The position numbers and the translations under genes were made by a program. Positions 4,100 to 62,668 of a stretch of DNA of 64,000 bases are shown piece after piece. The notes beneath the pieces were generated by a model. The model worked only from the letters and a program-made list of their open reading frames with translations, was not told where the DNA came from and ran no database searches. The stretch is taken from positions 76,998 to 140,997 of the forward strand of contig JACKAP010000006.1 in NCBI GenBank assembly GCA_020635015.1, written 5' to 3'. Every line of letters starts with the position of its first letter. Position 1 is the stretch's first letter. Origin of the DNA: Calditrichia bacterium (GTDB lineage Bacteria; Calditrichota; Calditrichia; RBG-13-44-9; J075).

Positions 4100-4180
4100 G
4101 TAGGGTAGGGTCGCGACCCTACCCTACGCGCGCGAATGGTGCAAACATCCAACATCCAACATCCGACATTCGAAACATCA
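4100..4180. repeat. REP-like perfect palindrome GTAGGGTAGGGTCGCGACCCTACCCTAC followed by an (ACATCCA)n tract
   Basis: Seen directly in sequence. A second copy of the palindrome is at 60768-60792, also immediately after a stop codon. Confidence 0.8.
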
Positions 4181-5476: not shown

Positions 5477-5540
5477 GTTTGGGCGTATATTGAAATTGTT
5501 GATGGGGTGGTGTGCTGTGTTCAAGTTGTTTGCGGTTTTA

Positions 5541-5624
5541 GATCGTTGTTGGTTGTTGGCTTTTGGTTAAAGACCAAAGACCAACAACCAAGGACCAACA
5601 ACCAAGGACCAACAACCAACAAGG
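5541..5624. repeat. Inverted heptamer arrays (GGTTGTT)n ... (CCAACAA/CCAAGGA)n
   Basis: gttgttggttgttggcttttggttaaagaccaaagaccaacaaccaaggaccaacaaccaaggaccaacaaccaacaagg. Confidence 0.8.
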
Positions 5625-9560: not shown

Positions 9561-9593
9561 ACCGCATCCAGCATCCAGCATCCAGCACCGAGC
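9561..9593. repeat. (GCATCCA)n heptamer tract
   Basis: accgcatccagcatccagcatccagcaccgagc. Confidence 0.8.
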
Positions 9594-12295: not shown

Positions 12296-12580
12296 GTGTT
12301 TGCTCGCTTCGCTCGCGATGTTAGTTCGCTTCGCTCACGATGTTTGCTCGCTGGCGCTCGCGATGTTTGCTCACTTCGTTCGCGATATTTGCGCTTCGCG
12401 CGATATTTGTTCGCTACGCTCACGATGTTTGCGCTTCGGGCGTCATGGAACGAAGAATACCTACTCCTCGATACTCGCAAGGTACCGCGCGAAGCGCAAA
12501 TATCGCTCACGAAGTGAGCAAACATCGCGCGAAGCGCAAATATCGTGAGCGACAGCGAGCAAACATCACTCAAATGCCAA
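12296..12580. repeat. Array of about seven degenerate 21-23-bp direct repeats (GATGTTTGCTCGCTTCGCTCGC-like) followed by three or four inverted copies
   Basis: Seen directly: units abut with no spacers, then GCGCGAAGCGCAAATATCG... in reverse-complement. It lies between convergent genes. Confidence 0.8.
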
Positions 12581-20791: not shown

Positions 20792-20855
20792 ATTGGTTGT
20801 TGGTTGTTGGTTAAGACAGGTCTTTGCCAAAAACCAATGCCCAACAACCAAAAGC
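20792..20855. repeat. Inverted heptamer arrays flanking the core TTAAGACAGGTCTTTGCCAA
   Basis: cattggttgttggttgttggTTAAGACAGGTCTTTGCCAAaaaccaatgcccaacaaccaaaagc. Confidence 0.8.
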
Positions 20856-20881
20856 TAATTTTAACGCTCATACTGACGCCG

Positions 20882-21611: not shown

Positions 21612-23504
21612 TTAATGTTGGGCGATGATGATATTCACTTCCCAGCCATCGCTGCGCAGGCCATAATCCATCTGCCAACGGTGCGGATAACGCTCTTCCA
21701 GGCGGGCCTTGACATACTTCAATCCCATCCCTTCTTCGATCTGCTGCGCCGGCTGCCGGGAGAGCTTCTCCAACTGCGAACCGTCATTCCATAGCCGGTA
21801 GTGCACGGTGCCGTTGTTGCGCTCGCAACTGATCAAAAATTTCCCGTTTTCCCCGCTGCGGTAAGCGTGGGTCAGTCCGTTCTCGATCAGGGTATGGAAG
21901 ATCATCGGCGGTATCTTTTCCTCGCCGGGAAGATTTTGTGCTTCCAGGGCATACTGTACGTCCTGGCGGTAGCCCATCAGGGTCAGGTGGGTGCGGCAGA
22001 GCGCAACTTCGTCGCTTAGCGGGATCTCGGTTTGTGAGGAGATCTGGTTGATCATGCGGAATTCCTCCGCCAGCGATTGGATCAGTTTGATGGCGGTGGG
22101 AGGATCTTCCCGGATCCAGGAAATGATCGAGAGCAGGGTGTTCATCAAAAAATGAGGTTGGATGTGCTTTTTGAGCAATTCGGTCTCCAGCCGGGCGGAA
22201 CGCAGTTTGGCCACCTCATGCTGCTGGTTCTGCTGCTTGATCTGCCGGCTGATGGAAAGCATCACGCAAAAGATGAAAAAGACGATACCGGCGGTATAGA
22301 CGTACCAGACCACACCCCAGTAAAAGAACACCATCATTGCCAGCAGTCCAAGGATCCCGATCAGGGCAGTCAGGCTGCCGGGCACTTTTTTCCGGATGGC
22401 GTATAGCGCCATGCCGGATGCGTAGAGCAGCACCAGCACCGGATCCGACTGGTCGAATAACAGCAGCGGAACCACTGCCAGCACACTGACGATCAGCATG
22501 TGATAATACTTGCGGGGCATCTCGAAAATCAAGATAAAAAAGATCGCCAGCAGCACTCCGCTTAGCGGCGTGATGATATAAGAGAGCCAGACCAGGCTGT
22601 CGGCATAGCGGATATTGATATTCCAGAGCAGTTGATAGGCCAGGATGCCGATCCCCAGCACGCTGGCCAGGCAGTAGAGACTGAACATCAGGTAAGGCCG
22701 CTGCCGGCCGCCCCCCAGGAACAGGGCGAAGCTGAACAGGCAGGCAAAAAAGAATACCCCGATATTAAACAACTGGAGATACATAAACTCGTTCAGCTTG
22801 TCGCGGATATCGGAGAGATAACCCAGCGGTATCCGGAAATAACGGAAAGAGTCATGCACATGCAGGTTGGAGAGCCGGATGGCAATCGTATGGATACCGG
22901 GGGTGGTCCACTCCCGCCTGAGTTTGACCACCCGCAGCAGGTCGCCGGGAATCTCCGCCGCCTGCACCGCCGCCACGCCGCCGTTGCGGTGGATCAGCCG
23001 CCCATCCCAGTAAATTTCATAGGCGGAGACGATCCCGGAGAAATACATCGCCAGGATATCAAAATCGTTCTGTTCTCCTTCCAGCCGCACCCGGGTGCGG
23101 TACCAGCGGATTCCGTGATTGGTTTCCTTTTCTTTGCCGGGATGCAGCCGGCCCCAGGCCTGGTCGTCGAAATCGGACAGCGCCCAAAGCGGGTTGTCGC
23201 CAAAGCGGTATTTCCAGTCTCCCAGCCGTTCGAGCTGCCCGCTCCGGCTGAGATCGAAAACGTGCAGGGAATCGCTGCCGGTCTTTTGAGCGTGCAGCGG
23301 CAGGATGCAGAAGAGAGCGATGGCCAGAATCGTGATTTTTGAAGGAGGAAGGATAAAGGATAAAATGAGATTTGCCACAGAGACACAGAGGCTGAAAGAC
23401 ACAGCATCGTTGCCAACTCTGTGGTCTCTGTGCCTCTGTGGCATATATCCTATTCGCATTTTCCGCTTGACGCTGTTCTCCCATTCACCCATATACCGAT
23501 CCAC
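21612..23504 (-). CDS. Sensor histidine kinase, LytS/YehU-type (7TMR-DISM sensor + His_kinase internal region)
   Basis: Seven TM helices then 'HFLMNTLLSI' (PF06580-type H-box) and an ATPase domain. It sits 29 bp upstream of the LytTR regulator. The true start may be downstream of the listed one. Confidence 0.8.
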   Translation of the reverse strand: MDRYMGEWENSVKRKMRIGYMPQRHRDHRVGNDAVSFSLCVSVANLILSFILPPSKITILAIALFCILPLHAQKTGSDSLHVFDLSRSGQLERLGDWKYRFGDNPLWALSDFDDQAWGRLHPGKEKETNHGIRWYRTRVRLEGEQNDFDILAMYFSGIVSAYEIYWDGRLIHRNGGVAAVQAAEIPGDLLRVVKLRREWTTPGIHTIAIRLSNLHVHDSFRYFRIPLGYLSDIRDKLNEFMYLQLFNIGVFFFACLFSFALFLGGGRQRPYLMFSLYCLASVLGIGILAYQLLWNINIRYADSLVWLSYIITPLSGVLLAIFFILIFEMPRKYYHMLIVSVLAVVPLLLFDQSDPVLVLLYASGMALYAIRKKVPGSLTALIGILGLLAMMVFFYWGVVWYVYTAGIVFFIFCVMLSISRQIKQQNQQHEVAKLRSARLETELLKKHIQPHFLMNTLLSIISWIREDPPTAIKLIQSLAEEFRMINQISSQTEIPLSDEVALCRTHLTLMGYRQDVQYALEAQNLPGEEKIPPMIFHTLIENGLTHAYRSGENGKFLISCERNNGTVHYRLWNDGSQLEKLSRQPAQQIEEGMGLKYVKARLEERYPHRWQMDYGLRSDGWEVNIIIAQH

Positions 23505-36526: not shown

Positions 36527-37903
36527 TCAGCCCTTCGCGCTTCGCCCTTTGCCATCTTTTTCCAGCCAGGGCGGCAGCGCTTCCAACTGCTGCACGTATT
36601 CGGTGTTTTCCGCCTGGCGGATGACGGCAATGCTTTTATCCTCACCGATCATCACCACATTGGGACGGAGGTGGATGAACTGCATCCATTGGGTGTTGTT
36701 GTAGGCCCCGACCGGAGAGATCACCACCTGGTCGCCTTTCTCCAGGTAGGGCATCTGGATGGTGTTGCAGATCTCATCGATCTGCATGCACAGCGGTCCG
36801 TAGATGTGATGAGCCTCCTGATTCAACTGGGCTTTATTCTCCGCCGGCAGGATGGTATGGTCGTACCAAAAGGAGGTGAACAGCAGATTGACCCCGGCGT
36901 CCAACACCAGCATGCGCATGCCGCTGTTCATGCGCTTGGTGGCGACCACCTGGGCGATCAGGAAGGCCGACTCATCCACCAGCCCCCGCCCGGTCTCCAG
37001 GAAGAGGGTGGGCAACTGCGCTGCCGGGAAGGCGTTGAGCAGCTCCGCGGTGATCGCCTCGGCATACTGGTCGAAGGAGGGGATGGTCTGGTAGGCCGCC
37101 GGGTAGATCGACGCCTTGAGCTTGTTGTGCGAGGCGAAGCCGCCTCCGATATCGATATAGCGGATCTTGATGCTCTCTGCCTGCTGGATCTGCTGAACAA
37201 AGCCGATCAGCTTGCGCACCTGTTCGCGGTAAACCTCGGCGTTGAGCACAAAGGTGCCGATATGGGAATGGATCCCCACCAGGCGCAGCCACTTGCTGGC
37301 GGCGATCCTCCGTGCCGCCTCGAAGGCCTGCCCGCTCTCCATGTTGAGGCCAAATCGATCCCACGACTGCAAAGTAGAGAGGTTCATATTGACCCGCATG
37401 CCGATCTCGACTTCCCGGCCGAGGTCCTCGGCAATCTGTTCGATCTCGTAAATTTCATCGAAGCTGTCGATGTTGATCATCGCTCCATCCTGAACCGCGA
37501 TTTGCAGTCCGCGAGGCGACTTGTACGGTCCGTTGAAGATGATCCGGTTGCCGGGATTGCCCATCTTGCGGGCCAGTTCATATTCCCATTCCGAGACCAC
37601 CTCCGCCCAGGCGCCGAGCTGGTGATAGCTCCGGCATACCGCCTGCAGATAGTTGGTCTTGTAGCTCCAGGCGAAATGTACTTTGGGATATCGTTTAGAG
37701 AAAGCCCGGTAGGCATTCTGGAAGATCTCCTTCAGCCGCGGGTAGGAATAGACAAAGAGCGGGGAGCCGTAGGCGGCGGTCAACTCGCTGACCGGGATGC
37801 CTTCGATATTGTCCTGAAAGCCGCTGGTCTGCGGTGTGCCGAATTTGCTGGTAATGCCCATTTGCCGCCGCGATATCGCCGGTTTTTGATAGGTCTTTTT
37901 CAT
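36527..37903 (-). CDS. Fold-type III PLP-dependent decarboxylase (Orn/DAP/Arg decarboxylase family 2; LysA/BtrK-like)
   Basis: PLP-Lys context 'FAWSYKTNY', 'IDIGGGFAS' and C-terminal 'GPLCMQIDEI'. Its start overlaps the ATP-grasp stop by 4 nt. Confidence 0.8.
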   Translation of the reverse strand: MKKTYQKPAISRRQMGITSKFGTPQTSGFQDNIEGIPVSELTAAYGSPLFVYSYPRLKEIFQNAYRAFSKRYPKVHFAWSYKTNYLQAVCRSYHQLGAWAEVVSEWEYELARKMGNPGNRIIFNGPYKSPRGLQIAVQDGAMINIDSFDEIYEIEQIAEDLGREVEIGMRVNMNLSTLQSWDRFGLNMESGQAFEAARRIAASKWLRLVGIHSHIGTFVLNAEVYREQVRKLIGFVQQIQQAESIKIRYIDIGGGFASHNKLKASIYPAAYQTIPSFDQYAEAITAELLNAFPAAQLPTLFLETGRGLVDESAFLIAQVVATKRMNSGMRMLVLDAGVNLLFTSFWYDHTILPAENKAQLNQEAHHIYGPLCMQIDEICNTIQMPYLEKGDQVVISPVGAYNNTQWMQFIHLRPNVVMIGEDKSIAVIRQAENTEYVQQLEALPPWLEKDGKGRSAKG

Positions 37904-38994
37904 GATGTCGGTCCTTCATCGGTTGAATGTTGCACAGGATTCGTCTCCGGATAATGGATCTCACCCCGGGAGAGCAGGCTGTCCAGCTGGCTGATTTCGC
38001 CAATCAGATCGATGGTGTAATGGGTGAAGAGTTTGCCCACCTGGTAATCGTTGACCGGTTCCAATTTCCGCCCCCGGGCCAGATCAACGTAATGGGCGGG
38101 CAGGTTGATCTCTGCCGCCACTCCGAGGTAGATCCAGGCGGGAAAGCGCGGGTTGATCTCCAGGATATAGAGTTTCTGGTCGCGCCGGGCCAGCAGGGTC
38201 TCCATCTCCAGCGCGCCCCGCCAGCGAGTGGCGCTAATGAAGCGGCGGGTGAGGTCGAGTAGCTGCTCGTTGCGGATACTCACCCCCGCCCAGCCCTTGC
38301 CCTTGTCGGTGAGCAGGATCTTCTTCATGCACAGGGCGGACACAATGCCGCCGTCGCCCCCGCCCAGCGCCGCTGCATTGAATTCCTCGCCCTGGATATA
38401 TTCCTGCACCAGCAGCGGGTAGCCCCACTTGTTGGCCAGCAGGCGGGCGTAAGAGAGCGCCTGAGGCTGGTCGTGGCAAATGTAAGCGTCGTAATAGATC
38501 CCTTTGACCAGCAGCGGGAAGCCGACCTCCCGCAGCGCTGCCTCCAGATCGGCCAGATGGTGCACCGTCACAGTGCGTGGTACCGCAAAATCAAATTTAC
38601 GGCCCAGTTCCGCCAGGTTGGCTTTGGAGCGGGCCTCGATCTGCGCAGTGGTGGGGATGAACATCCGGGTCCCGCTCTCCCGCAATTCAGCTTCCAGCCC
38701 GGCAAAGTGGGCGATCTCCGAATCCAGGGTGGGGATGATGATGTCGATGGGCGTTCTCTGCCGGATCTCATCCAGGCGCTGCTGCAGCGCCTCCCGCCCT
38801 TCCCGGGGGTAGGGCAGCAGATAGCCGGCACGGAACAGCTCGCGGTCGAACAGCCCGGGATCGATGGCGTCATAGCCGAGGGCGATCAGGCGATAATCCT
38901 GCCCGCCCTGGGCCATCAGACTGCGCGCCACCGCCACACCCGGACCGGGACTCTCCACGGCGTTGACCCCGGTAATGGCTATGGTCAGACTCAT
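37900..38994 (-). CDS. ATP-grasp family carboxylate-amine/peptide ligase
   Basis: Pre-ATP-grasp N-domain and 'LYILEINPRFPAW' ATP-grasp core. Its start overlaps the PqqD-like stop by 4 nt. Confidence 0.8.
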   Translation of the reverse strand: MSLTIAITGVNAVESPGPGVAVARSLMAQGGQDYRLIALGYDAIDPGLFDRELFRAGYLLPYPREGREALQQRLDEIRQRTPIDIIIPTLDSEIAHFAGLEAELRESGTRMFIPTTAQIEARSKANLAELGRKFDFAVPRTVTVHHLADLEAALREVGFPLLVKGIYYDAYICHDQPQALSYARLLANKWGYPLLVQEYIQGEEFNAAALGGGDGGIVSALCMKKILLTDKGKGWAGVSIRNEQLLDLTRRFISATRWRGALEMETLLARRDQKLYILEINPRFPAWIYLGVAAEINLPAHYVDLARGRKLEPVNDYQVGKLFTHYTIDLIGEISQLDSLLSRGEIHYPETNPVQHSTDEGPTS

Positions 38995-39269
38995 ATGCTG
39001 TTCTCCTGTGTGTCAAAACTGACCAGGCCGAGGTTGATCAGCATTGGGATGAATTCGCGGATATCCTTGTCGAGTACCCGTTCGTCCACTTCGTAAACTT
39101 CCAGCAGGCGGGTTTTGATCGCCTCGGTATCGGTGATGCCTTCTTTGAGGCACTGGATGATGTCTCGGGCAACCTCATTGGTGCTGAGGATTTCCCCGGT
39201 GCCGGGATCGAATACGAACCCGGTATCGCTGATGATGAATTGCTGTAATCTTTCCACATTGTAGCGCAT
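38991..39269 (-). CDS. PqqD-family protein (RiPP-recognition-element-like peptide chaperone)
   Basis: 92 aa; 'FVFDPGTGEILSTNEVARDIIQCLKEGITDTEAI...VDERVLDKDIREFIPMLINLGLV' matches the PqqD pattern. Confidence 0.7.
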   Translation of the reverse strand: MRYNVERLQQFIISDTGFVFDPGTGEILSTNEVARDIIQCLKEGITDTEAIKTRLLEVYEVDERVLDKDIREFIPMLINLGLVSFDTQENSI

Positions 39270-39287
39270 GGCGAATTCTCCTGAAGA

Positions 39288-39719
39288 TTAGGGGGATACC
39301 AGGTAAGCCCAGATATAGGCGGTCATGCCGTCGAGCTTATAGCCGAGTTTATTGCATACCGCGTCGTCTTCGGCACAGTCTTTTTTTTCCAGCTTGCGCA
39401 GCCAAACCGCGGCCTCGAAGGTGCCGTTGAGGTATTCCGGATCGACCACGATCTCCTTCACCGTCACCCCCTGTTTGATCGAAAAAGAGAGATGCTTGCC
39501 CTCTTCCAGGGTATTGGTCACATTGGGCGGGTAAAGCGAGACCCCCAGCCACATGTCCTTGCCGCTGACGTGGGCAGTGAGGGTTAGTTTGAGGGTGTTG
39601 CCGCCGTTTTTGGTGATCTCGTAGGAGAACCCGATCTGGTCGGTCTGGGCGGCCGCCCCATTTCCAAAGGCGCTGATTAACGCCAGCAGGATGATAAAAA
39701 TTAATGTGTTACGCTTCAT
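39288..39719 (-). CDS. Small secreted hypothetical protein (signal peptide; C-terminal Cys pair)
   Basis: MKRNTLIFIILLALISAFGNGAAAQ signal and '...KDCAEDDAVC...'. No recognisable family. Confidence 0.6.
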   Translation of the reverse strand: MKRNTLIFIILLALISAFGNGAAAQTDQIGFSYEITKNGGNTLKLTLTAHVSGKDMWLGVSLYPPNVTNTLEEGKHLSFSIKQGVTVKEIVVDPEYLNGTFEAAVWLRKLEKKDCAEDDAVCNKLGYKLDGMTAYIWAYLVSP

Positions 39720-39731
39720 AGTGATGACTCC

Positions 39732-40604
39732 TTAGAATTTATAGAACAAACCAAATGTATAGTACACAGCACTGAACTGAAATCCCTGGTCGTCATAGCG
39801 CTCATATTGGACATCCGCATAAGGCTTGAGGTGCTTGCCGAGCTGGTAGTAGGCGGTGAGCCCCAGGTTGGTGGTCAGCATCACGTCGGTGGTGTAGAGC
39901 ACCAGCGTCGAGGGGTTATAAGAAAGTACCTGTTCCCCGAAAATTCCGTAAGCAGTAAGGGTGAGTTTGCGGGGCACGGGGTACCAGGTTAGCTCCGGAT
40001 GCACGCTCCAGCCCCATTTGATATTCTGCACCGGCTGTTCATAAAACGAAAAATGCCCGGAAGCCTGCGCCCAGACATAATAGTTGAACAGGGCCATGCC
40101 CCAGGTGGCGGAGACTTCGGCTTTATCGGCCAGGTCGTTAGGAAAATAGTGCAGATTAAGATCCGCATAATAGCGCCCCGCCGGAGAAAACCAGGAAAGG
40201 GAGAGGTAGCCGGGAAAGGTCTGATCGACCGCCGGAAAAGGCGCCCACAGCGCGCTGCCCTCCAGGGCCAGGGTAAAGCTGCCGCGATGGCGAGTATAGA
40301 AGGTGCGGGCCAGGCTGACCCGCAGGTGGTCGCTGCGGGCCGGCTCGCCGTCGGTTTTGTCGACCGTGATGTCGGTATGGCGCCAGCCCAAGGCCAGCCA
40401 CCAGGTCTTGGCTCGATTGTTATAATAGATGTCGCCCCTTCCGGAGCGAAATACGTCGACCAGGCTGTTTTCGTAGATTCCGTAGACGCCTTTCGCCGCG
40501 ACCGTGAGCGAGGACTGGGCAGATGCCTTGCCGCTCAGGAACAGCGCCAGGCAGATCAGTTGTAAAACCGTAAATTGCAGTAAGCGGGTCGATAAGCGTT
40601 TCAA
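39732..40604 (-). CDS. Putative outer-membrane beta-barrel protein
   Basis: Signal peptide, alternating amphipathic strands rich in Y/W/G, and a C-terminal aromatic residue (...FGLFYKF). Confidence 0.6.
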   Translation of the reverse strand: MKRLSTRLLQFTVLQLICLALFLSGKASAQSSLTVAAKGVYGIYENSLVDVFRSGRGDIYYNNRAKTWWLALGWRHTDITVDKTDGEPARSDHLRVSLARTFYTRHRGSFTLALEGSALWAPFPAVDQTFPGYLSLSWFSPAGRYYADLNLHYFPNDLADKAEVSATWGMALFNYYVWAQASGHFSFYEQPVQNIKWGWSVHPELTWYPVPRKLTLTAYGIFGEQVLSYNPSTLVLYTTDVMLTTNLGLTAYYQLGKHLKPYADVQYERYDDQGFQFSAVYYTFGLFYKF

Positions 40605-40611
40605 ACCGTAT

Positions 40612-42765
40612 TCACTCCCCGGGTGTCTGTTCGTAATACTCTATTTTATCTAACTTTAATTCGACGCCATTCTCCTGGAGATAATTGAATCCTTCCCCTT
40701 TGCGGAACACCAGTTGGCGGGTGCCAGCCTTGCGCTTGAACGTAAAATGCCATCTGATAAATCCGCCTCGGATCTGCTGGGCCTGCTTGAGCAGAATGGT
40801 TTCGTCGGGCAGTTTTTCCAGGGAATTGTCGATCTCCAGGAAGCAGCGCAGGCCGAAAATGGTAAACAGGTCCAGGAAGTGCACCAGGTAACGGGGCAGG
40901 GTGTAATCCAGGGAGGTCTGGCTGGTCCAATGAAGTTTGCCCGGCGCTTCCGGAAACACCACATCGGTGAGGGTCTGGGCCAGCAGAAACAGGGCGCTGT
41001 TGCGCTTTCCCTGATACTTTTTCAGCGAGAGCACTCCTTCAGACAGGTCGAAATAGAGCCGGTCGCCGTCCTGGTTTTCCAGGCAGAGATTGTTGTAAAA
41101 ATCATTGTGCAGATGCCAGGATTCCTCAGAGCTCAACTTGCCGCTGTTCAGGATCAACTGCCATTTTTTGTAAATTTCATCGAAGAAATATTTGCTGTAG
41201 TCGGCATCATAGCGCAGGTTCTCCACCCGGTCATCTTTGTTGAGGATGCCCTTGGGAAGCAGGCGGTCGGCGGCGTTATCCTGTTTGATCAGCAGATTGG
41301 AAAATTCAAAATAAAGTGCCGGGGCGCCGATGTAATCCTGAGCCTGAAACTGCAGGTGGATATGCGGGTAGGGAGAACGGCCGGAATTGCCGCAGTGCCC
41401 GATTTTATCACCTTTACTGACGGTATCCCCTGCTTTGACGCTGATCGAATCCTTCTGCAGGTGAGCGATGCAGCTGTAGAAATAGGGGGCATGCTCGATG
41501 ATCACGCAGTTGCCCCAGTTGTCGCGGGGATTGGCCTGCCCGGGGCGGTTGTCATAGATGTCATTTTTGACCCGAACGACCGTGCCGTCGGCCGGGGCGA
41601 GCACCAGGGCGTTGTAGCAATAGTAATCGCTCAGCTTCTCCCCGCTGCCGCTGTAAATGCTGCCGCCGGTGTCGCGGATCATGAAGTCGATCCCATAAGC
41701 CCATTCGTCTTTATGGGTATATTCGCCTTTGAATGCCTGGCTCACCACCCAGTCGCTGTAAAAGGGCAGGGAGATCGCCACCCCGTAGCGCCGCCACATC
41801 TTCAGGTTTTCCCGGTAGCTGCTCAGGTTCTCCTCAGGTGATAGCGGGTGGGAACTCAATTCCAGCCCCAGCGAGGGATGGAGGCGCATCTTTAAGGCAA
41901 ATACCACCAGTAGCACCGAGAGGTTGAAAGACAGCGCAAGAGAAGAGAGATAAAACGGCATGGCGATCTCCAGCGCGATCAGGTTCATGTAAACGATAAA
42001 GATGCCGAAGATCGCCAGCAGGAGGCTGGATAGATTCGGGATCAGGAACACCCCGCCCAGCGCCAGGGCGGTGAGCATATAGTTGAAGCCAAGATATTGG
42101 CTGTGAATGAACGCTTCGCTCACCCCGAAAAATTCGTGGATGTAATACCCGCCCAGCCAGCCGATCCCGATCAGCAACAGCGAGAGGCGGGAATAAATCA
42201 GCAGCCCGGCGGCGATCAGGATGCCTGAGATCGGGTTGATGGTGAAAAAGATCGCCCCGAGGTTCTTGAAAAACAGGTTGAGGCTAAGGGGCAAGGCATG
42301 CAGGGAGACGTCAAACACCTGCCAGCGCACCTCCGAAGGGGTCAGGTAGCCGCTGCCAAAGCTGGCGATGATGGCGGTGTAGATGATCAGATTGAAGGGG
42401 AGGCTCATGTAGGGCAGCCCGTAGGCGCTCAAGAAGGTTTTGATCCACATGGTGAAGACGGTCATCAGGATCACCGCAATGATGACCAGGATGACCAGGT
42501 GGAGGGAGACATCGTAATAAAGGCTCAGGCCTAACGCCACCAGAATACCGTTGAAGCCCCATAAGCCTTGCCGTATCTCCTGGCGGCTGAATCCCAGCAG
42601 GTAGGCGACCAGGTTGGCAATCAGCGCCCCTCCCAGGCCGAAGATGCCGTGGGAGGGAATGACCAGGGTTGCCAGCAGGATAATCAATCCCAATGCCTGA
42701 TGTTGTGAAAAGAATATGAGCGAATAGCTTTTTAAGGTACTCTCTGTCCAGAATTTCGCATTCAT
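40612..42765 (-). CDS. Polytopic membrane protein with N-terminal urea-transporter (UT)-like domain fused to M23 metallopeptidase and C-terminal domain of unknown function
   Basis: N-terminal 'ALGLIILLATLV...GLWGFNGILVALG' resembles the UT-family LSGLLILVGL...GLYGYN. M23 core 'HAPYFYSCIAHL...GHCGNSGRSPYPHIHLQF'. This is the first gene of a six-gene operon. Confidence 0.7.
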   Translation of the reverse strand: MNAKFWTESTLKSYSLIFFSQHQALGLIILLATLVIPSHGIFGLGGALIANLVAYLLGFSRQEIRQGLWGFNGILVALGLSLYYDVSLHLVILVIIAVILMTVFTMWIKTFLSAYGLPYMSLPFNLIIYTAIIASFGSGYLTPSEVRWQVFDVSLHALPLSLNLFFKNLGAIFFTINPISGILIAAGLLIYSRLSLLLIGIGWLGGYYIHEFFGVSEAFIHSQYLGFNYMLTALALGGVFLIPNLSSLLLAIFGIFIVYMNLIALEIAMPFYLSSLALSFNLSVLLVVFALKMRLHPSLGLELSSHPLSPEENLSSYRENLKMWRRYGVAISLPFYSDWVVSQAFKGEYTHKDEWAYGIDFMIRDTGGSIYSGSGEKLSDYYCYNALVLAPADGTVVRVKNDIYDNRPGQANPRDNWGNCVIIEHAPYFYSCIAHLQKDSISVKAGDTVSKGDKIGHCGNSGRSPYPHIHLQFQAQDYIGAPALYFEFSNLLIKQDNAADRLLPKGILNKDDRVENLRYDADYSKYFFDEIYKKWQLILNSGKLSSEESWHLHNDFYNNLCLENQDGDRLYFDLSEGVLSLKKYQGKRNSALFLLAQTLTDVVFPEAPGKLHWTSQTSLDYTLPRYLVHFLDLFTIFGLRCFLEIDNSLEKLPDETILLKQAQQIRGGFIRWHFTFKRKAGTRQLVFRKGEGFNYLQENGVELKLDKIEYYEQTPGE

Positions 42766-42964
42766 CTCCGGCTCTCAGCTTGTGCGATCGAATAGTGAAT
42801 TGCAAACTGGCATTAATCCAACTTTATTATGATGCTGGATACTGGATGCTGGATACAAGATTGGGTCGAGCATCCAGCGTCTTCGGATGTATAGATCGTT
42901 ACCATTCGCATTGTAATATACCGGATTTAATCGCGGTACTCCATCATTGATACATTTTGTTCGC

Positions 42965-43369
42965 GGTTGATGGGTTAATGGGGAAAAGGATAAAGGATAA
43001 AGGATAAAGGATAAAGGATAAAGGTTGAAGATACTGGATACTGGATACTGGATAAAATAAAAATGCTTGTTCAGGTGTGAAAATCGGGTTCATTTAAGCA
43101 TCCAGCATCCAGCATCCAGCATCCAGCATCCAGCATCCAGCATCCAGCATCCAGCATCCAGCATCCAGCATCCAACATCCAACATCCAGCATCCAACATA
43201 TACTCATCAGACAAAGCCATCCGCAAAAACTTGCAAATTTCCTATTGACCTGACCCGATCCCTTCAACATATTTCCGCCGCAATGAAAAATCAACCCATC
43301 AACCCATCAACCCATCAACCCATCAACCCATCAACCGATCAACCCATTAACCCATCAACCCATCAACCC
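42965..43369. repeat. IR-L: composite heptamer block (GGATAAA)5-(ATACTGG)3-unique core-(GCATCCA)12-(ACATCCA)-(CCATCAA)9 running up to the S9 peptidase start codon
   Basis: Seen directly. Its first 200 bp or so are the reverse complement of 45296-45545. Confidence 0.9.
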
Positions 43370-45295
43370 ATGAAAACATTACCCTATGGCACCTGGCCAT
43401 CACCGATTACCGCCGATCTCATCGCTGCCGCCGGGCGGCGGCTGGGCGATATCGCCGTCGATGGAGATTCGGTTTACTGGATCGAAAGTCGCCCGGAGCA
43501 GGAGGGGCGCAATACCATCATGATGTGGAACCCCGGCGGGGAGTTTCGGGAAGTTACCCCGCCGCCTTTTAATGTGCGCTCCCGGGCCCATGAATACGGC
43601 GGCGGCGCTATGGCGGTGTATGGCGGCCGGGTGTTCTTTGTGAACGATGCAGATCGCCAGATCTATCACATTCCTCCCGGCGGATCCCCGCAGGCGCTGA
43701 CCAGCGAATCCGATACCGCCTATGCCGATATGATCCTCGATCCGGCGCGCCAGCGGCTGATCCTGGTGCAGGAGCATTATTTTGATGACAGCCGCCCGCC
43801 CCGCGACATGCTGGCCGTGCTTTCCCTGCGCGGCCGCCCGGGATATTGTGAGCCGCTGGTGAGCGGGAACGATTTCTATGCCAGTCCCGCCCTGAGCCGC
43901 GACGGCCGGCAGCTTTGCTGGCTGAGCTGGGACCATCCGGCAATGCCCTGGAACGGTACTGAATTATGGGTGGCGGAGGTAGGGGATGACGGTCAACTGC
44001 GCCGCCGGCGCCGGATTGCCGGAGGCGCGCAGGAGTCGGTGTTCCAGCCGCAATGGGGTACAGACGGCACCCTGTATTTTGCTTCCGACCGCAGGGAGGG
44101 CTGGTGGAACCTCCATGCCTGGGATGGGCACACCATCCGGCCGGTGCTGGAGATGGCTGCGGAGTTCGCCTTGCCCCAGTGGGTTTTCGGAATGTCGACC
44201 TATTGTATTTTGAATGAGCGTTGTATCGCCGCTGCGTACACCCGGGAGGGGCGCTGGGAGATGGGGCTGATCGATCCGCAGCGCGGTGATCTGGAGGCCC
44301 TGGCGCTGCCCTTTAGCTATATTACCCAGGTTCGCGGCGCCGGGGAGCGGATCGCTTTTGTCGGCGCTGCGCCGGATGCAGCGGAGGCGGTTTATACCCT
44401 GGAACTGCCGTCGCAGCACCTGCAGATGTTGCGGAAATCCAGCGATCTGGAGGTGGATGCCGGCTATATTTCCACCCCGCAGGCAGTGAGTTTTGAAAGT
44501 GATGGCGAGGAGGTGCACGGCTTTTTCTATCCTCCCAGCAATCGCGATTTCAGCGCTCCGGAGGACGAAAAACCTCCGCTGATCGTATTCATTCACGGCG
44601 GTCCCACGGCGGCGGCGAACAGCGGATTGGATCTTCGCAAACAATTTTGGACCAGCCGCGGCTTTGCGGTGCTCGACGTCAACTACCGGGGCAGCACCGG
44701 CTATGGGCGGGCGTACCGGGAAAGCCTCAACGGCCGTTGGGGGGTGGCCGATGTGCAGGATTGCGTCAACGGCGCCCGGCGTCTGGCGGCGCAGCAGCAG
44801 GCGGATCCGGAAAGGCTGCTGATCCGCGGCGGCAGCGCCGGGGGATTCACCGCCCTGGCGGCGCTGACTTTTCACGATTGTTTCCGGGCCGGGGCGAGCT
44901 ATTATGGCATCAGCGATCTGGAAGCGCTGGAGCAGGAGACCCACAAGTTTGAATCGCGCTACAATCATCAATTGATCGCCCCCTATCCCGCCGGTAAGCC
45001 AGTCTACCGCGAACGCTCGCCGCTGCACCATGCCGGGGATCTGAACCGCCCGGTGATCTTCCTGCAGGGCCTGGAGGATCGGGTGGTGCCCCCCGGTCAG
45101 GCGGAAAGAATGGCCCACGCCCTGCGTAAACGCGGCGTGCCGGTGGCTTATCTTACCTTTGAGGGCGAAGGGCACGGCTTCCGCAAGCCGGAAACCATCC
45201 GCCGCGCCCTGGAAGCGGAGTTGTTCTTTTATGGAAGGGTGCTGGGATTCGAGCCCGGGGAGAAGCTTGATCCGGTGCAGATAGATAATTTGTGA
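43370..45295 (+). CDS. S9 family serine peptidase (acylaminoacyl-peptidase / dipeptidyl-aminopeptidase-like beta-propeller + alpha/beta-hydrolase)
   Basis: Nucleophile elbow 'GGSAGG' and a C-terminal 'HGF' His. The true start is ATG 43370 (MKTLPYGTWPSP); the upstream 100 codons of the listed ORF translate heptamer repeats (SIQHPAS..., QPINPST...). Confidence 0.85.
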   Translation: MKTLPYGTWPSPITADLIAAAGRRLGDIAVDGDSVYWIESRPEQEGRNTIMMWNPGGEFREVTPPPFNVRSRAHEYGGGAMAVYGGRVFFVNDADRQIYHIPPGGSPQALTSESDTAYADMILDPARQRLILVQEHYFDDSRPPRDMLAVLSLRGRPGYCEPLVSGNDFYASPALSRDGRQLCWLSWDHPAMPWNGTELWVAEVGDDGQLRRRRRIAGGAQESVFQPQWGTDGTLYFASDRREGWWNLHAWDGHTIRPVLEMAAEFALPQWVFGMSTYCILNERCIAAAYTREGRWEMGLIDPQRGDLEALALPFSYITQVRGAGERIAFVGAAPDAAEAVYTLELPSQHLQMLRKSSDLEVDAGYISTPQAVSFESDGEEVHGFFYPPSNRDFSAPEDEKPPLIVFIHGGPTAAANSGLDLRKQFWTSRGFAVLDVNYRGSTGYGRAYRESLNGRWGVADVQDCVNGARRLAAQQQADPERLLIRGGSAGGFTALAALTFHDCFRAGASYYGISDLEALEQETHKFESRYNHQLIAPYPAGKPVYRERSPLHHAGDLNRPVIFLQGLEDRVVPPGQAERMAHALRKRGVPVAYLTFEGEGHGFRKPETIRRALEAELFFYGRVLGFEPGEKLDPVQIDNL

Positions 45296-45545
45296 GTGGA
45301 TGGGTGGATGGGTTGATGAGTGGATGGGTGGATGGGTTAATGGGTTGAGATGCTGGATGCTGGATGCTGGATGCTGGATGCTGGATGCTGAAATGAACCC
45401 GATTTTCGCACCCGAACAAGCATTTTTATTTTACCCAGTATCCAGCACCTTCAACCTTTATCCTTTATCCTTTATCCTTTACCCTTTATCCTTTATCCTT
45501 TATCCTTTTCCCCATTCACCCATCAACAAGCAATCGCAAAACCAC
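45296..45545. repeat. IR-R: inverted copy of the IR-L composite heptamer block
   Basis: Its reverse complement reads ttgatgggtgaatggggaaaaggataaagg...ggttgaaggtgctggatactgggtaaaataaaaatgcttgttcgggtgcgaaaatcgggttcatttcagcatccagcatccagc..., over 90% identical to 42969-43160. Confidence 0.9.
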
Positions 45546-45562
45546 GAAAGGTAACCGACTTA

Positions 45563-46798
45563 ATGATCTACCAATCCGTCCACAAAACCATTCTCCCCAA
45601 CGGCCTGACCATCGTTTCCGAGCACATCCCTTACGTGCGTTCGATTTCCCTGGGTGTATGGGTGAAGTCCGGCAGCCGCAGTGAAACCCCGGAGAATAAT
45701 GGGGTTGCCCACTTCCTGGAACATCTGCTGTTCAAGGATACCGAGCGGCGCAGCGCTCGCGACGTGGTGCGCAATATCGAGTCTTTGGGCGGAATGATCA
45801 ACGCTTACACCAGCAAAGAGCAGACCTGCTTTCACGTGGAGATTCTTGATGAACACCTTCCCCAGGCGGTGGACGTGCTGGCGGATATCCTGTTCCGCAA
45901 GGGTTTTCCGGAAAATGAGATCGAAAAAGAACGGGAGGTGATCCTGGATGAGATTCAGTCGCTGGAAGACACTCCGGATGAACTGGTGCAGGATATCCTG
46001 ATGGAAAAACTCTACCCCGGCCACAGTCTGGGATTTTCGATCCTGGGTACGGAGCAGTCTATTGCTGCCCTGACCCTGCGCGAGTTGATGAATTTTTACC
46101 ATGCCCATTATTGCCCCGGCAATATCATCATCGCCGCCGCCGGAAATCTGGAACATGCCCGCCTGGTGGATTTGGCACAGGGCAGCTTTTCCTTTTCCGA
46201 TCAGCCTTGCGATTCCAGCGTGGAGGCCCCCCGGCAGTACGGAAAGGGCGAAGTGCGGATCACCCGCCCGATCAACCAGGCGCATGTCTGCCTGGGGATG
46301 CCCGCCTTCTCCTACAGTGATCCCCGTAAATACGATCTACTGGTGCTGAATACGGTTCTGGGCGCCGGGATGGGCTCGCGCCTGTTCCAGAATATCCGGG
46401 AAACATACGGCATCGCCTATGGGATCTACTCGTTTTTTGATTTCTTCAGCGACAACGGCATGTTTGGGGTCTATCTCGGCACCGATCCGAAAAAAGTGCC
46501 CCGGGCGCTGGAACTGGTGGAGAAAGAACTGGCGGTGCTTTGTAAGCGGCAGATACCCCGGCAGGAACTGCAGGAGGCCCAATCTCAACTGAAGGGCAAC
46601 ATCGTACTGGGACTGGAAAGCACCGCCGCGCGCATGAACCGGCTGGCCATGTTGGAAATCTATTTCGATGGTTTCAAGACGATCGATTACATCGTAGAAG
46701 CGATCGACCGCACCACCCGGAGGTCGGTGTGGGAAACCTCCTGCGAGCTTTTCCGGCCGGAGAACTTTCTGCGGGTGGTGTTCTCGCCGGAGGGTTAG
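45563..46798 (+). CDS. M16 family (pitrilysin-like) zinc peptidase
   Basis: Inverted zinc motif 'HFLEHLLFKDTE' (HxxEH). Confidence 0.85.
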   Translation: MIYQSVHKTILPNGLTIVSEHIPYVRSISLGVWVKSGSRSETPENNGVAHFLEHLLFKDTERRSARDVVRNIESLGGMINAYTSKEQTCFHVEILDEHLPQAVDVLADILFRKGFPENEIEKEREVILDEIQSLEDTPDELVQDILMEKLYPGHSLGFSILGTEQSIAALTLRELMNFYHAHYCPGNIIIAAAGNLEHARLVDLAQGSFSFSDQPCDSSVEAPRQYGKGEVRITRPINQAHVCLGMPAFSYSDPRKYDLLVLNTVLGAGMGSRLFQNIRETYGIAYGIYSFFDFFSDNGMFGVYLGTDPKKVPRALELVEKELAVLCKRQIPRQELQEAQSQLKGNIVLGLESTAARMNRLAMLEIYFDGFKTIDYIVEAIDRTTRRSVWETSCELFRPENFLRVVFSPEG

Positions 46799-46826: not shown

Positions 46827-46924
46827 TTGCATGGGGCATGGGGCATGGTGTATTACAGTGCGAGTGTCGACGTATACGCTAGCACATGACGGCGCCATGC
46901 GCTTTGCCCTTTGCCCCATGCAAA
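46827..46924. repeat. MITE-like palindromic element copy 1 (TTGCATGGGGCATGGGG ... CCCCATGCAA)
   Basis: Terminal inverted repeats GCATGGGGCATGGGG / CCCCATGC with an internal TATTACAGTGCG core. Copies are at 52773-52856 and 58702-58798. Confidence 0.85.
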
Positions 46925-47074
46925 AGCCGTCCCCAATATCCAGTCCCCGGCACGAACGAAAATAAGTATGCTAGATATACACATTTTTTTTGTATGTTGC
47001 TGATGAGACGGGGCGATCTGCGGGTCGCCTTTGTTTTTTGGCAGCATGATGTTGATTGATGAAGAGGAGTCAGG

Positions 47075-49478: not shown

Positions 49479-49604
49479 GGGGGACGAAGGGTGAAGGATG
49501 AAGGATGAAGGATGAAGGATGAAGGATGAAGGATGAAGGATGAAGGATGAAGGATAAAGGATAAAGGATGAAGGATAAAGGATGAAGGATGAAGGATGAA
49601 GGAT
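49479..49604. repeat. (GGATGAA/GGATAAA)n heptamer tract, about 17 units
   Basis: gggggacgaagggtgaaggatgaaggatgaagg...ggataaaggatgaaggataaaggatgaagg. Confidence 0.9.
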
Positions 49605-52772: not shown

Positions 52773-52856
52773 TTGCATGGGGCATGGGGTATTACAGTGC
52801 GGGTCTCGGAATATGCGCTTGCGCATTACGGCGCCATGCCCTATGCCCCATGCAAA
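52773..52856. repeat. MITE-like palindromic element copy 2
   Basis: ttgcatggggcatggggtattacagtgcgggtctcggaatatgcgcttgcgcattacggcgccatgccctatgccccatgcaa. Confidence 0.85.
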
Positions 52857-52972
52857 AGTTTTCCACATTTTACAGTTCTCAAAATGCTTGTTTGCAAAAA
52901 AAAATAAAAAATGTGTTGCAACATTAAATGTCTATACATATATTTTTGGCGAATAAAATAACCGAGTATTAT

Positions 52973-58678: not shown

Positions 58679-58701
58679 TGACGATGTAATGCGGCGCACT
58701 T

Positions 58702-58798
58702 TTGCATGGGGCATGGGGCATGGCGCCGTAATATGCAAGCGCATGGTCCGACACCCGCACTGTAATACACCATGCCCCATGCTCCTGGCCCCATGCAA
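58702..58798. repeat. MITE-like palindromic element copy 3 (central core inverted relative to copies 1 and 2)
   Basis: ttgcatggggcatggggcatggcgccgtaatatgcaagcgcatggtccgacacccgcactgtaatacaccatgccccatgctcctggccccatgcaa. Confidence 0.85.
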
Positions 58799-58875: not shown

Positions 58876-60771
58876 ATGCACGAAGGCGGATTTTTTTATC
58901 AGGCATTTGTTTATCTCAGCGCAGCCGTTGTCTCGGTGCCGGTGGCCAAGCGGCTCGGCCTGGGCTCGGTGCTGGGATATTTGATCGCCGGCATCATCAT
59001 CGGACCTTTTGCCCTGGGCCTGGTGGGGGAGGAAGGGCAGGACGTGATGCATTTTGCCGAATTCGGGGTGGTGATGATGCTGTTTCTGATCGGCCTGGAA
59101 CTGCAGCCGGCCCTGCTCTGGAAGCTGCGCGTGCCGATCCTTGGCCTGGGTGGGCTGCAGGTTGGTTTGACCAGTGCGCTGATCCTCGGTGCGGGAATTG
59201 CTTTCGGACTGGCCTGGCAAACCGCTCTGGCGCTTGGGCTGACCCTGGCGCTCTCCTCTACGGCGATTGTGTTGCAGACCCTGAACGAAAAAGGGTTGAT
59301 GAAAACCGCCGGAGGCCAGAATGCTTTCTCGGTGCTGCTGTTCCAGGATATCGCAGTGATCCCGATCCTGGCGGTGATGCCGCTCCTGGCAAGCGGACAT
59401 GTTGCTGCGGGGTCCGGAGACGGGCATCATGCCGTCACCTGGGTGGAAGGGCTGCCGATCTGGGCCCAGACCGGGGTGGTGCTGGGGGTGGTGGTGATGA
59501 TCGTGCTGGCCGGCCAGTACCTGATCAGCCCCCTGTTCCGCATTATCGCCCGCACCCGCCTGCGGGAAATTTTTACCGCCGCCGCCCTGTTGCTGGTGAT
59601 CGGCATTGCCCTGCTGATGACCCAGGTGGGGCTCAGTCCGGCATTAGGCACCTTCCTGGCCGGGGTGGTGCTGGCCCAGAGCGAATACCGCCATGAGTTG
59701 GAAACCGATATCGAACCGTTCAAAGGACTGCTGCTGGGCCTGTTTTTCATTGCGGTGGGGGCTTCGATCGACTTCAACCTGATCGCCGCCGATCCCCTGT
59801 TGATCACCCAACTGGTGATCGCCCTGATCCTGCTGAAGTTCGTGGTGCTCTTCGTCACCGGTAAGTTTTTCCGCATGAGCCTGGATAATAACCTGCTTTT
59901 CGCCTTTGCCCTGGCCCAGGGCGGGGAGTTTGCCTTTGTGCTCTTCTCCTTTGCGGTGCAGAATCAGGTGATCCCCCCGGCGGTGGCCAATCCGCTGATC
60001 GCGGTGGTGGCAGTCTCCATGGCCCTGACCCCGCTGCTGATGCTGATCAACGAGAAGCTGATCCAGCCGCGCTTCGGCACCACCGAGAAGGCTGCCCGGG
60101 CCGCCGATGAAATCGATGAACAGAGCAAGGTGATCATCGCCGGCTTCGGCCGGGTGGGCAGCACCGTCGGCCGCTTTCTGCAGGCCAACGGGGTGCAGGC
60201 CACCTACCTGGATATCGATCCGGACAATGTCGACCTCCTGCGCAAGATGGGGCTGAAGGTATTTTACGGCGACGCCTCGCGCCATGACCTGCTCCATGCC
60301 GCCGGGGCCGGGGAAGCGGAACTGCTCATTGTGGCGGTGGACGATCCCGTCAAAACCCTGGCGATCGTGGAAACCGCCCGCAAGCACTATCCCAATCTGA
60401 AGATCATGGCGCGCAGCGTGGGCTGGACCGATTCCTACGATCTACTCGATGCCGGCATTGGCGATGTCTACCGCGAGACGCTCGACTCCGCCCTGCGTAT
60501 GGCGGCAGATGCCCTGCACCGGCTGGGATTCCGCCGCCATCAGGCCATGCGGGCGGTCAAAACTTTCCGCCGGCATGACGAGCGCTACCTGCGCGAGCTG
60601 GCCGCGATGCGCCACGACAGCAAAGCGCTGATCCGGGGCGCGCGACAGCGAATCGAAGACCTGGAGAAACTCATGCAGGAAGAGAGTGAGAATGTCGGCA
60701 AGCACAAAGACCTCGGATGGGATGCGACGACATTGATTGAAGAGTATGGAAAAATGCAATCGGATTCGTAG
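58876..60771 (+). CDS. kefB: Glutathione-regulated potassium-efflux antiporter KefB/KefC (CPA2 + KTN/TrkA-N)
   Basis: CPA2 membrane domain and 'VIIAGFGRVGSTVGRFL' KTN NAD-binding domain; 631 aa. Confidence 0.9.
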   Translation: MHEGGFFYQAFVYLSAAVVSVPVAKRLGLGSVLGYLIAGIIIGPFALGLVGEEGQDVMHFAEFGVVMMLFLIGLELQPALLWKLRVPILGLGGLQVGLTSALILGAGIAFGLAWQTALALGLTLALSSTAIVLQTLNEKGLMKTAGGQNAFSVLLFQDIAVIPILAVMPLLASGHVAAGSGDGHHAVTWVEGLPIWAQTGVVLGVVVMIVLAGQYLISPLFRIIARTRLREIFTAAALLLVIGIALLMTQVGLSPALGTFLAGVVLAQSEYRHELETDIEPFKGLLLGLFFIAVGASIDFNLIAADPLLITQLVIALILLKFVVLFVTGKFFRMSLDNNLLFAFALAQGGEFAFVLFSFAVQNQVIPPAVANPLIAVVAVSMALTPLLMLINEKLIQPRFGTTEKAARAADEIDEQSKVIIAGFGRVGSTVGRFLQANGVQATYLDIDPDNVDLLRKMGLKVFYGDASRHDLLHAAGAGEAELLIVAVDDPVKTLAIVETARKHYPNLKIMARSVGWTDSYDLLDAGIGDVYRETLDSALRMAADALHRLGFRRHQAMRAVKTFRRHDERYLRELAAMRHDSKALIRGARQRIEDLEKLMQEESENVGKHKDLGWDATTLIEEYGKMQSDS

Positions 60772-60823
60772 GGTAGGGTCGCGACCCTACCCACACCCCT
60801 CAACCCCTCAACCCATCAACCAT
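60768..60823. repeat. REP-like palindrome GTAGGGTAGGGTCGCGACCCTACCC (copy 2) followed by a (CCCTCAA/CCATCAA)n tract
   Basis: It overlaps the kefB stop codon (TAG), the same arrangement as 4100-4180. Confidence 0.85.
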
Positions 60824-62571: not shown

Positions 62572-62655
62572 AGCATTTCGCCACCGAGGCACAGAGCGCA
62601 CCAAGTGTTGTCAGGAAACAACGCATTTTATATCTGTGCATCGGTGGCGAAATGC
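62572..62655. terminator. Long inverted repeat (23-bp arms GCATTTCGCCACCGAGGCACAGA / TCTGTGCATCGGTGGCGAAATGC) with an inner hairpin, between convergent genes
   Basis: Seen directly between the esterase (+) and glgC (-) genes. Confidence 0.5.
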
Positions 62656-62668
62656 TAAACGCTTGGCA

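Follow-up and report, generated by a model that had tools for sequence, protein, structure and literature searches.

Repetitive extragenic palindromic (REP) sequences, bacterial interspersed mosaic elements (BIMEs) and REPINs are short intergenic palindromes of enterobacteria and pseudomonads that often form mosaics, occur in either orientation and vary between strains, and their transcribed stem-loops can stabilise upstream mRNA. REPs are imperfect palindromes of fixed sequence, 20–40 nt in length, that are spread by RAYT (IS200/IS605-like) transposases. Short tandemly repeated repetitive (STRR) heptamers of heterocystous cyanobacteria, traced to Mazel et al. in 1990, are reportedly intergenic tandem heptamers with several unit types per genome. 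This report describes intergenic repeats in a 64-kb window of a Calditrichia bacterium (the whole stretch analysed, 64,000 nt of contig JACKAP010000006.1, assembly GCA_020635015.1), where a gene for an S9 family serine peptidase lies between inverted copies of a small hairpin-forming element.

The closest known kind is found in Xanthomonas and Nostoc, whose intergenic regions are rich in G-rich heptamer repeats. These GGGAATC and GGGGA(C/T)T repeats are abundant, non-coding and unexplained in function (Rehm et al. 2015, PMC4692102). The G-strand follows the stop codon by ≤50 bp or overlaps it, and the C-strand lies ahead of starts. Inverted copies capable of forming stem-loops are found, close relatives vary strongly, and no tie to mobile elements or gene classes was seen (PMC4692102). 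A preprint places Nostoc heptamer repeats near promoters and start codons, with some overlapping starts and suspected effects on expression (bioRxiv 10.1101/2022.06.06.494920). TAACTGA direct repeats form abundant intergenic arrays in marine Beggiatoaceae, some Cyanobacteria and Bacteroidetes (MacGregor 2015, PMC4679880). Many of them end a few nucleotides from a start codon without a canonical ribosome-binding site, and a role in translation was proposed (PMC4679880). A literature search found no paper on such repeats in Calditrichota.

Repeat arms around the S9 gene

The intergenic regions to the left and right of the S9 gene each contain one arm of an inverted pair. Most probably, the arms are two copies, in opposite orientation, of a single member of a non-coding, hairpin-forming family of intergenic elements that populates the whole genome. 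An initial annotation of the sequence had described flanks more than 90% identical as inverted repeats and roughly 250 bp or more in length. The identity was confirmed and is far beyond chance. Gapped alignment of 42960–43140 to the reverse complement of 45349–45535 has 163 matches, 11 mismatches and 20 gap columns, which is 93.7% identity over aligned bases (163/174). An ungapped inverted-repeat search gave arms of 181 nt at 42957–43137 and 45349–45529 that are 86% complementary. The length was overestimated, as real paralogy spans ~175 nt per arm and farther out the likeness is one of tract composition only.

A unique core, AATGCTTGTTCAGGTGTGAAAATCGGGTTCATTT (given as 34 nt and as 42 nt), is present exactly twice in the window, once on each strand, whereas 100 shuffles predict 0 occurrences. 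Junctions between tracts are also common to both arms: AATGGGGAAAAGGATAAAGG, AAAGGTTGAAG, CTGGrTAAAATAAAAATG and CATTTmAGCATCC. The arms are therefore true paralogues, reverse-complementary beyond simple-repeat composition. Inside them is a second pair, in which (CCCATCAA)10.2 at 43290–43371 is the inverted partner of (TGGATGGG/TTGATGGG)7 at 45293–45348 (56 nt, 86% complementary). The S9 frame is doubly bracketed, by this inner octamer pair touching its start and stop codons and by an outer pair of the unique loop core1. The tract leading into the ATG had been read as the heptamer (CCATCAA)9 and is instead the octamer (CCCATCAA)10 at 43290–43371. A TTGACC hexamer noted in the unique spacer is present, at 43245–43250 and not at 43235.

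Elements are ordered as G-rich octamers (TKRATGGG), G-rich heptamers (GGATRCT), a unique loop, C-rich heptamers (AGYATCC) and C-rich octamers (CCCATYMA); each also has, on one side, a GGATAAA tract that stays unpaired. In the right element, octamer arms lie outside and heptamer arms inside, around the unique loop, with one tract unpaired. The left intergenic element is the right element turned round, plus an extra 90-nt spacer before the closing (CCCATCAA)10. The right region (45290–45565) is predicted to fold as one nested hairpin with an RNA minimum free energy (MFE) of −101.4 kcal/mol (z = −6.1 vs shuffles).

Variation among sister strains

At least 20 contigs of the same species (L numbers) were obtained from NCBI, ENA and Logan assemblies by exact-protein look-up. 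Where they include S9 coding sequence, it is 98.3–99.7% identical to that of the window. The left intergenic region is dimorphic among 15 independent assemblies, window included, of which 7 carry a W allele and 8 an S allele.

W allele: window, L095 (which runs UT-M23 into S9), L097, L098, L099, L101, L103.
S allele: L081, L085, L086, L087, L094, L096, L100, L102.

The S allele has a 34-nt loop, TAAAAACGGACGTACGATAAGCGATTTTATATCA (core2), in place of (GGATAAA)n-GTTGAAG-(GATACTG)3-core1, and S9 itself shows no other change in these strains. Octamer and heptamer tract counts also differ between the alleles; the left outer octamer arm has 2 copies in W and 5 in S. Swap junctions lie inside arrays common to both alleles, (TTGATGGG)n on the outer side and (AGCATCC)n on the inner. 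The outer core1 pair around S9 exists because one of two left-region alleles carries the core1 loop, and the S9 locus does not always have the left arm. Features of the locus are listed below, with the program or evidence in brackets (TRF, Tandem Repeats Finder).

40612–42765, minus strand: urea-transporter/M23-peptidase fusion gene (UT-M23), 717 aa, the upstream neighbour, divergent from S9 (Pfam UT 3.4e-52, Peptidase_M23 4.5e-16).
42829–42885, no strand assigned: small hairpin (GATGCTG/GATACTG)4-short loop-AGCATCCAGC, identical in all strains' contigs (RNA MFE −24.5 kcal/mol).
42966–42984, plus strand: left element outer G-rich octamer arm (TTGATGGG/TTAATGGG x2), the outer junction of the W/S allele swap.
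42985–43024, plus strand: (AAAGGAT = GGATAAA)5.7 heptamer tract, then GTTGAAG; 4 or 5 copies among W-allele strains (TRF).
43030–43054, plus strand: inner G-rich heptamer arm (GATACTG)3.5 (sequence).
43055–43096, plus strand: unique loop core1, left copy, in W-allele strains only.
43097–43199, plus strand: inner C-rich heptamer arm (AGCATCC)14.7, in which the allele swap has its inner junction; strains range from 3 to at least 20 copies (TRF, 96% matches).
43200–43289, plus strand: unique 90-nt spacer with a sigma-70-like TTGACC-17-CATATT (43245–43273), identical in all strains seen.
43290–43371, plus strand: (ATCAACCC = CCCATCAA)10.2 octamer tract into the ATG, with 1 G (43337) before the start (TRF).
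43370–45295, plus strand: S9 family serine peptidase, 641 aa (Pfam Peptidase_S9 4.6e-51).
45293–45348, plus strand: outer G-rich octamer arm (TGGATGGG/TTGATGAG/TTAATGGG x7), which begins in the TGA stop (TRF, inverted-repeat search).
45349–45390, plus strand: inner G-rich heptamer arm (GATGCTG)6; 4–8 copies among strains (TRF, 100% matches).
45391–45433, minus strand: right copy of the unique loop core1, in the opposite orientation to the left one, in every strain seen.
45434–45449, plus strand: inner C-rich heptamer arm (CCAGTAT CCAGCAC), which is CCAGTATCCAGCACC, then TTCAA; pairs with 45349–45390 in the predicted fold.
45455–45508, plus strand: (CCTTTAT)7.7 tract, reverse complement of the left GGATAAA tract; 2–8 copies among strains (TRF).
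45509–45529, plus strand: outer C-rich octamer arm (CCCATTCA CCCATCAA; the region end reads CCCATTCACCCATCAA), which closes the right element (sequence).
45563–46798, plus strand: M16 (insulinase-type) peptidase, 411 aa, the downstream neighbour (Pfam Peptidase_M16 1.7e-44, M16_C 1.7e-40); same neighbour in L089.

The left and right core1 copies differ at three positions. These differences hold in every contig, the one exception being the right arm of L091, so the right arm is not a template from which the W allele keeps being rebuilt. A weak promoter-like TTCACA-16-TATTTT lies at left core1 on the minus strand (43081–43054). The right element is present in all sister strains, and its intergenic region is 256, 270, 277 or 284 nt in length, in steps of 7; heterogeneity in heptamer copy number had been predicted and was found. 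The octamer tract before the S9 ATG varies from 6 to at least 15 copies and is also present in L088, a relative with 89% identity. In L091, the right element (2240–2525) is a mosaic with GATACTG among GATGCTG units and one left-arm-type core1 base, which suggests recombination between elements. It has only 2 CCTTTAT units and 5 C-rich octamers. Tract lengths would change by slipped-strand mispairing in replication, and loops may be exchanged by recombination or gene conversion, with the flanking tracts as homology.

W and S types seemingly occur within one sample, since both L097 (W) and L082 (S-type tract end) come from ERZ27309268. Outgroups were no help in polarising the alleles: upstream sequence runs to only 86 nt in L093 (92% identical) and 28 nt in L088. 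Short-read contigs L081–L103 often end inside heptamer or octamer tracts, and L081 has an N run in its octamer tract. The repeats fragment assemblies and may give rise to miscalled small open reading frames (ORFs), such as one of 90 aa in L081. That ORF and the tract-crossing ORFs 43067–45295 (from TTG) and 45300–45554 were rejected as repeat artefacts. The S9 N-terminus reads MKTLPYGTWPSPI, and homologues align from residues 1–5.

Among more distant relatives, contig L088 (Logan, 89% nucleotide identity) still carries (AACCCATC)n ahead of the ATG, and its stop is followed by GTGGGTGGAT...(TGCTGGA)n. In L089 and L090, where S9 is 58% identical, the order S9-M16-alanine dehydrogenase (AlaDH)-polysaccharide deacetylase-MerR is retained. 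Hairpins at the same intergenic sites differ, with GGATTRW / TCCATTAA upstream of S9, ACGGAAT / ACGTAAT units in the gaps on both sides of M16 (towards S9 and towards AlaDH), and a GGCAGGG / CTGCCTA hairpin after MerR, where the window has (GGATGAA/GGATAAA)17.6. Because synteny is kept with unrelated repeats, S9 is an old resident that was not brought in by them. The trait that the lineage conserves is the filling of intergenic regions by repeat-armed hairpins, not the hairpin sequence.

Repeat hairpins across the window

The same tract types are found at many unrelated intergenic sites in the window, which counts against the cassette reading by the initial annotation's own yardstick. Exact tandem arrays with a period of 7 or 8 nt and a minimum of 3 copies number 19, compared to 0 in 100 Markov simulations, and 19/19 are in non-coding DNA, which is 11% of the window. 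TRF tracts are located at 3207, 3276, 4144, 5569, 9564, 20793, 42985–43371, 45293–45508, 46829, 49482, 57008, 57101, 58704, 60795 and 61789. Units include GGATGCT, GGATAAA, GCATGGG and TGGATGGG. Housekeeping genes are also flanked by tracts, among them a Mur ligase, an FtsY-like GTPase and a short-chain dehydrogenase.

At least 12 tandem-repeat-armed hairpins were found, in each of which the G-rich arm comes first (5′) and the C-rich arm second (3′), and the same order is seen in 3–4 hairpins of L089. G-arm-first order is strand-symmetric and therefore cannot stem from the direction of transcription or replication. One idea is that this polarity might avoid exposing C-rich Rho-loading sites. 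With G-arm-first hairpins, genes end beside a G-tract and start beside a C-tract, whatever their orientation. G-tracts overlap TGA at 3207, 45293 and 61789 and follow the stop at 49482 and 57008. C-tracts lie ahead of start codons at 43370 (0 nt), 5626, 4193, 60843 and 57186. Exceptions are a C-tract after a stop at 9564 and a purine tract against the ATG at 49605. The inner octamer bracket of S9 arises because both adjacent intergenic regions use the octamer family under the G-arm-first rule.

Most tracts form hairpins with a unique loop, and the loops fall into small dispersed families. In the 64 kb, core1 is found twice, core2 once (besides the S allele) and the GCATGGG family three times. 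The second core2 copy (3247) is in the octamer hairpin 3207–3326, whose loop is 76% identical to core2. The (GCATGGG)n-loop-(ATGCCCC)n hairpins are ~95 nt in length and located at 46829–46925, 52773–52865 and 58700–58795. Their loop is conserved (GTATTACAGTGCGGGTGTCG...CATTACGGCGCC) and is inverted in the 58700 copy. Units have been lost from both arms of the 46829 hairpin in strains L082 and L083. Hairpins of the form (TTGGTTG)n-TAAGAYAGGTCTTTGCC-(CCAAT.., ACCAACA)n are at 1880–1935 and 20793–20860, with a relative at 5540–5622. A (TAGGG)2TCGCGA(CCCTA)2 palindrome, GTAGGGTAGGGTCGCGACCCTACCC(T/A)AC, has 2 copies (4100–4128 and 60768–60792). After both of them come a C-rich 7/8-nt tract, then a GGAG ribosome-binding site with its start codon.

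Other repeats were also seen. At 49482–49604, (GGATGAA/GGATAAA)17.6 takes up the entire gap between the stop of a MerR-family gene and the start (ATG) of one of the carboxymuconolactone-decarboxylase family. AAGGA and ATG are present in every unit, and the array has no inverted partner. A ~270-nt palindrome of 22-nt and 40-nt units (TGTTTGCTCGCTTCGCTCGCGA and relatives) lies between convergent genes at 12297–12567. Its arms are 67 nt (82% complementary) and 47 nt (94%), with an RNA MFE of ~ −158 kcal/mol, and it is a repeat class distinct from the heptamer hairpins. Hairpins at 23355–23461 and 62572–62656 have a common CACAGAG / CTCTGTG-type stem, no tandem-tract arms and no G-first polarity, and may be another small repeat family.

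Gene content and database searches

The window is ordinary chromosome. Its genes include dnaA, an SRP54-type GTPase (FtsY-like), a Mur ligase, two-component systems and several peptidases. As initially annotated, no transposase or recombinase lies between the arms, and Pfam searches of ~57 ORFs in the whole window found no transposase, integrase, invertase or Y1-transposase domains. Entries from Calditrichota/Calditrichia metagenome-assembled genomes, MCB0289371.1 / MCB9088848.1, match the S9 protein at 100% identity. Content of GC at third codon positions (GC3) is 0.69 for S9 and 0.72–0.74 for its neighbours. A search with S9 of GTDB representatives, among which the source genome is not included, returned only matches of ≤53% identity in other phyla. 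The S9 peptidase is an ordinary, long-resident chromosomal gene.

Rfam had no match to the whole window at gathering thresholds. A permissive Rfam scan of 42760–45570 returned plant microRNA precursors and a Wolbachia small RNA, generic hairpin look-alikes far below threshold that were rejected. In the JGI metagenomes, a collection without this lineage, neither core1 (GCTTGTTCNGGTGNGAAAATCGGG) nor the GCATGGG-family loop had any match. The left arm had no match in a plasmid collection.

The dnaA gene (15568–17037) is preceded by a 454-nt AT-rich region (from 15114) without tandem tracts, which is unusual in the window; no E. coli-type DnaA-box cluster was found in this region. Beside UT-M23 is a co-directional block (37900–42765) with an ATP-grasp gene, PqqD, and 143-aa and 290-aa proteins without a Pfam match. 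By its gene content, the block looks like a small cluster for ribosomally synthesized and post-translationally modified peptides. The UT-M23 fusion is widespread in the Fibrobacteres–Chlorobi–Bacteroidetes (FCB) group.

Possible roles

RNA of the right element would form a stable stem-loop 3′ of the S9 stop that could protect or insulate the message as REPs and BIMEs do. No T-run is present in 45530–45562, and a consensus scan found no intrinsic terminator there. Without a U-run, the right element would be closer in behaviour to REP/BIME stabilisers than to an intrinsic terminator. The octamer hairpin 3207–3326 has TTTTTT directly after it.

The octamer tract 43290–43371 is the probable 5′ leader of S9. 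As RNA, (CCCAUCAA)n with its single G before the AUG would be unstructured, and S9 would lack a Shine-Dalgarno sequence. This leader lies downstream of the probable spacer promoter, TTGACC-17-CATATT, the only sigma-70-like match facing S9 (9/12 consensus), and leader length may tune expression. Octamer tracts could alternatively form G-quadruplexes. Canonical G3N1-7 x4 motifs occur in the octamer family only, at 3212–3238 (plus), 43303–43369 (minus) and 60790–60814 (minus). Heptamer units GGATGCT and GGATAAA have GG only. The arrays show no four-unit preference in this small sample.

Comparison with known repeats

Like the Xanthomonas and Nostoc repeats (PMC4692102), G-run arrays in the Calditrichota window are far above chance and confined to non-coding DNA, follow the stop/start positional rule with exceptions at 9564 and 49605, and vary in length between close relatives at the same sites (S9 locus, 46829). 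Unlike them, the Calditrichota repeats have several 7- and 8-nt unit families, not one, and the tracts are regularly paired and nested around unique loops that form dispersed families. Only the octamer family fits the G-quadruplex motif, and no four-unit preference is seen in the small sample. Loop dimorphism within one species also sets the Calditrichota repeats apart from known cases.

As with TAACTGA arrays, (CCCATCAA)10 ends at the S9 start and (GGATGAA)17 at the start of the 49605 gene. TAACTGA arrays have a single unit and 169 direct sets with one indirect (PMC4679880), whereas the Calditrichota repeats have many units, mostly in inverted pairs. Compared to the STRR and Nostoc heptamers, phylum and units are different, and nested hairpins with loop families are not known to be described for them. 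The elements resemble REPs and BIMEs in being short, intergenic, palindromic, mosaic and strain-variable. Unlike REPs and REPINs, their stems are expanding and contracting 7–8-nt arrays with no fixed palindrome, and no Y1-transposase/RAYT was found in 64 kb. Neither MITE (miniature inverted-repeat transposable element), REP/REPIN nor invertible segment describes these elements.

Alternative explanations

The S9 locus is a local view of a genome-wide repeat system, and its reading as a cassette or a captured gene is rejected. Several points weigh against the proposed system and its possible roles. Coverage was 64 kb of this genome plus the S9 locus in other strains, and the core1 and core2 copy numbers are those of that 64 kb. 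The spacer promoter match (9/12) is not above chance, with 3 found and 2.1 expected. Sense vs antisense folding at 18 hairpins is mixed, with 7/11 co-directional sites favouring sense; since folding energies have no consistent strand bias, RNA-level selection is not claimed. The mechanism that forms the alleles is inferred only from junctions inside common tracts. Arm divergence is ~6%, compared to 0.3–1.7% between strains, so the left copy is not a recent duplicate of this locus's own right arm.

Tract slippage or the choice of W or S loop could switch S9 or UT-M23 expression on and off as adaptive phase variation, which is considered unlikely. Copy number varies widely among near-identical strains, and the two loop alleles coexist, apparently within sample ERZ27309268. 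Repeats between promoter and start that tune Moraxella UspA2 are a precedent (reviewed in PMC4679880). However, the tracts at S9 lie outside the −35/−10 interval and outside the reading frame, and like tracts flank housekeeping genes throughout the window. Rehm et al. were also negative on such switching for the Xanthomonas and Nostoc repeats (PMC4692102). Tract length may still affect regulation, though not in a way confined to S9.

It is also conceivable, as a doubtful extension of the repeat system, that tracts serve as addresses for cassette exchange. Loops would be swapped by tract-guided gene conversion, and exchange would rewire UT-M23 (left) and M16 (right) via outward-facing promoter-like or regulator-binding sequences in the loops. 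Given also their strict G-arm-first polarity, the hairpins would then be lineage-wide insulators with exchangeable control modules. If so, stable dimorphisms such as W/S would arise, and the process would be conserved across Calditrichota while unit sequences turn over.

The initial annotation also proposed a MITE pair that had captured a gene, or a repeat-encoded regulatory switch. Its reading stands to the extent that the arms are copies of a small repeat element made of heptamer and octamer tracts. Capture and movement of S9 by a MITE pair or composite transposon is very improbable. Like MITEs, the elements are small, non-coding, dispersed (with few copies per loop family in the 64 kb), internally inverted, and present or absent between strains, and beyond its own species S9 has matches of ≤58% identity scattered over many phyla. 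However, the S9-M16-AlaDH-deacetylase-MerR order is kept with unrelated repeats in the relative whose S9 is 58% identical, and GC3 of S9 is similar to that of its neighbours. The other allele holds a second loop enclosed by the same tracts and has neither an empty site nor a target-site duplication. At their ends the elements grade into tandem tracts and lack defined terminal inverted repeats.

Still less credible is an invertible or excisable cassette, in which recombination between the arms flips or deletes the 2.3-kb S9 segment as phase variation. Inverted sequence of ~175 nt that is 94% identical around a single gene would be enough for RecA-mediated inversion in W strains. However, the left arm is wholly absent in 8/15 strain assemblies, and the 64 kb encode no recombinase or invertase. 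S9 orientation is constant, with one orientation across the left junction in the window, L081, L085, L094, L095, L096 and L097, and across the right junction in L081–L084, L091 and L092. No junction-crossing contig has S9 in the opposite orientation in at least 20 assemblies, although short-read assemblies are a weak test of minority forms. Because the arms enclose the promoter-like site and leader as well, the gene would remain coupled to both after an inversion.

Although short-read contigs break inside tracts and L081 has an N run in the octamer tract, a left arm created by an assembler jumping via common tracts into the right arm or another locus can be set aside as scarcely plausible, since the W allele has the same three core differences in six other independent NCBI/ENA/Logan assemblies, L095 spans UT-M23 into S9, and L091 and L092 have a W-type tract end.

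Significance

For S9 itself, the repeats matter very little. Nearly every gap in the window above ~70 nt holds hairpins with expandable 7–8-nt array stems, in the little-studied phylum Calditrichota, and strain-level hypervariability sits beside 99%-identical genes. The tracts fragment short-read assemblies and would serve as high-resolution strain markers. W vs S is a natural two-allele contrast that is usable for tests of function. The unexplained G-rich heptamer phenomenon of Xanthomonas, Nostoc and Beggiatoaceae is extended to a new phylum, in a richer and more structured form.

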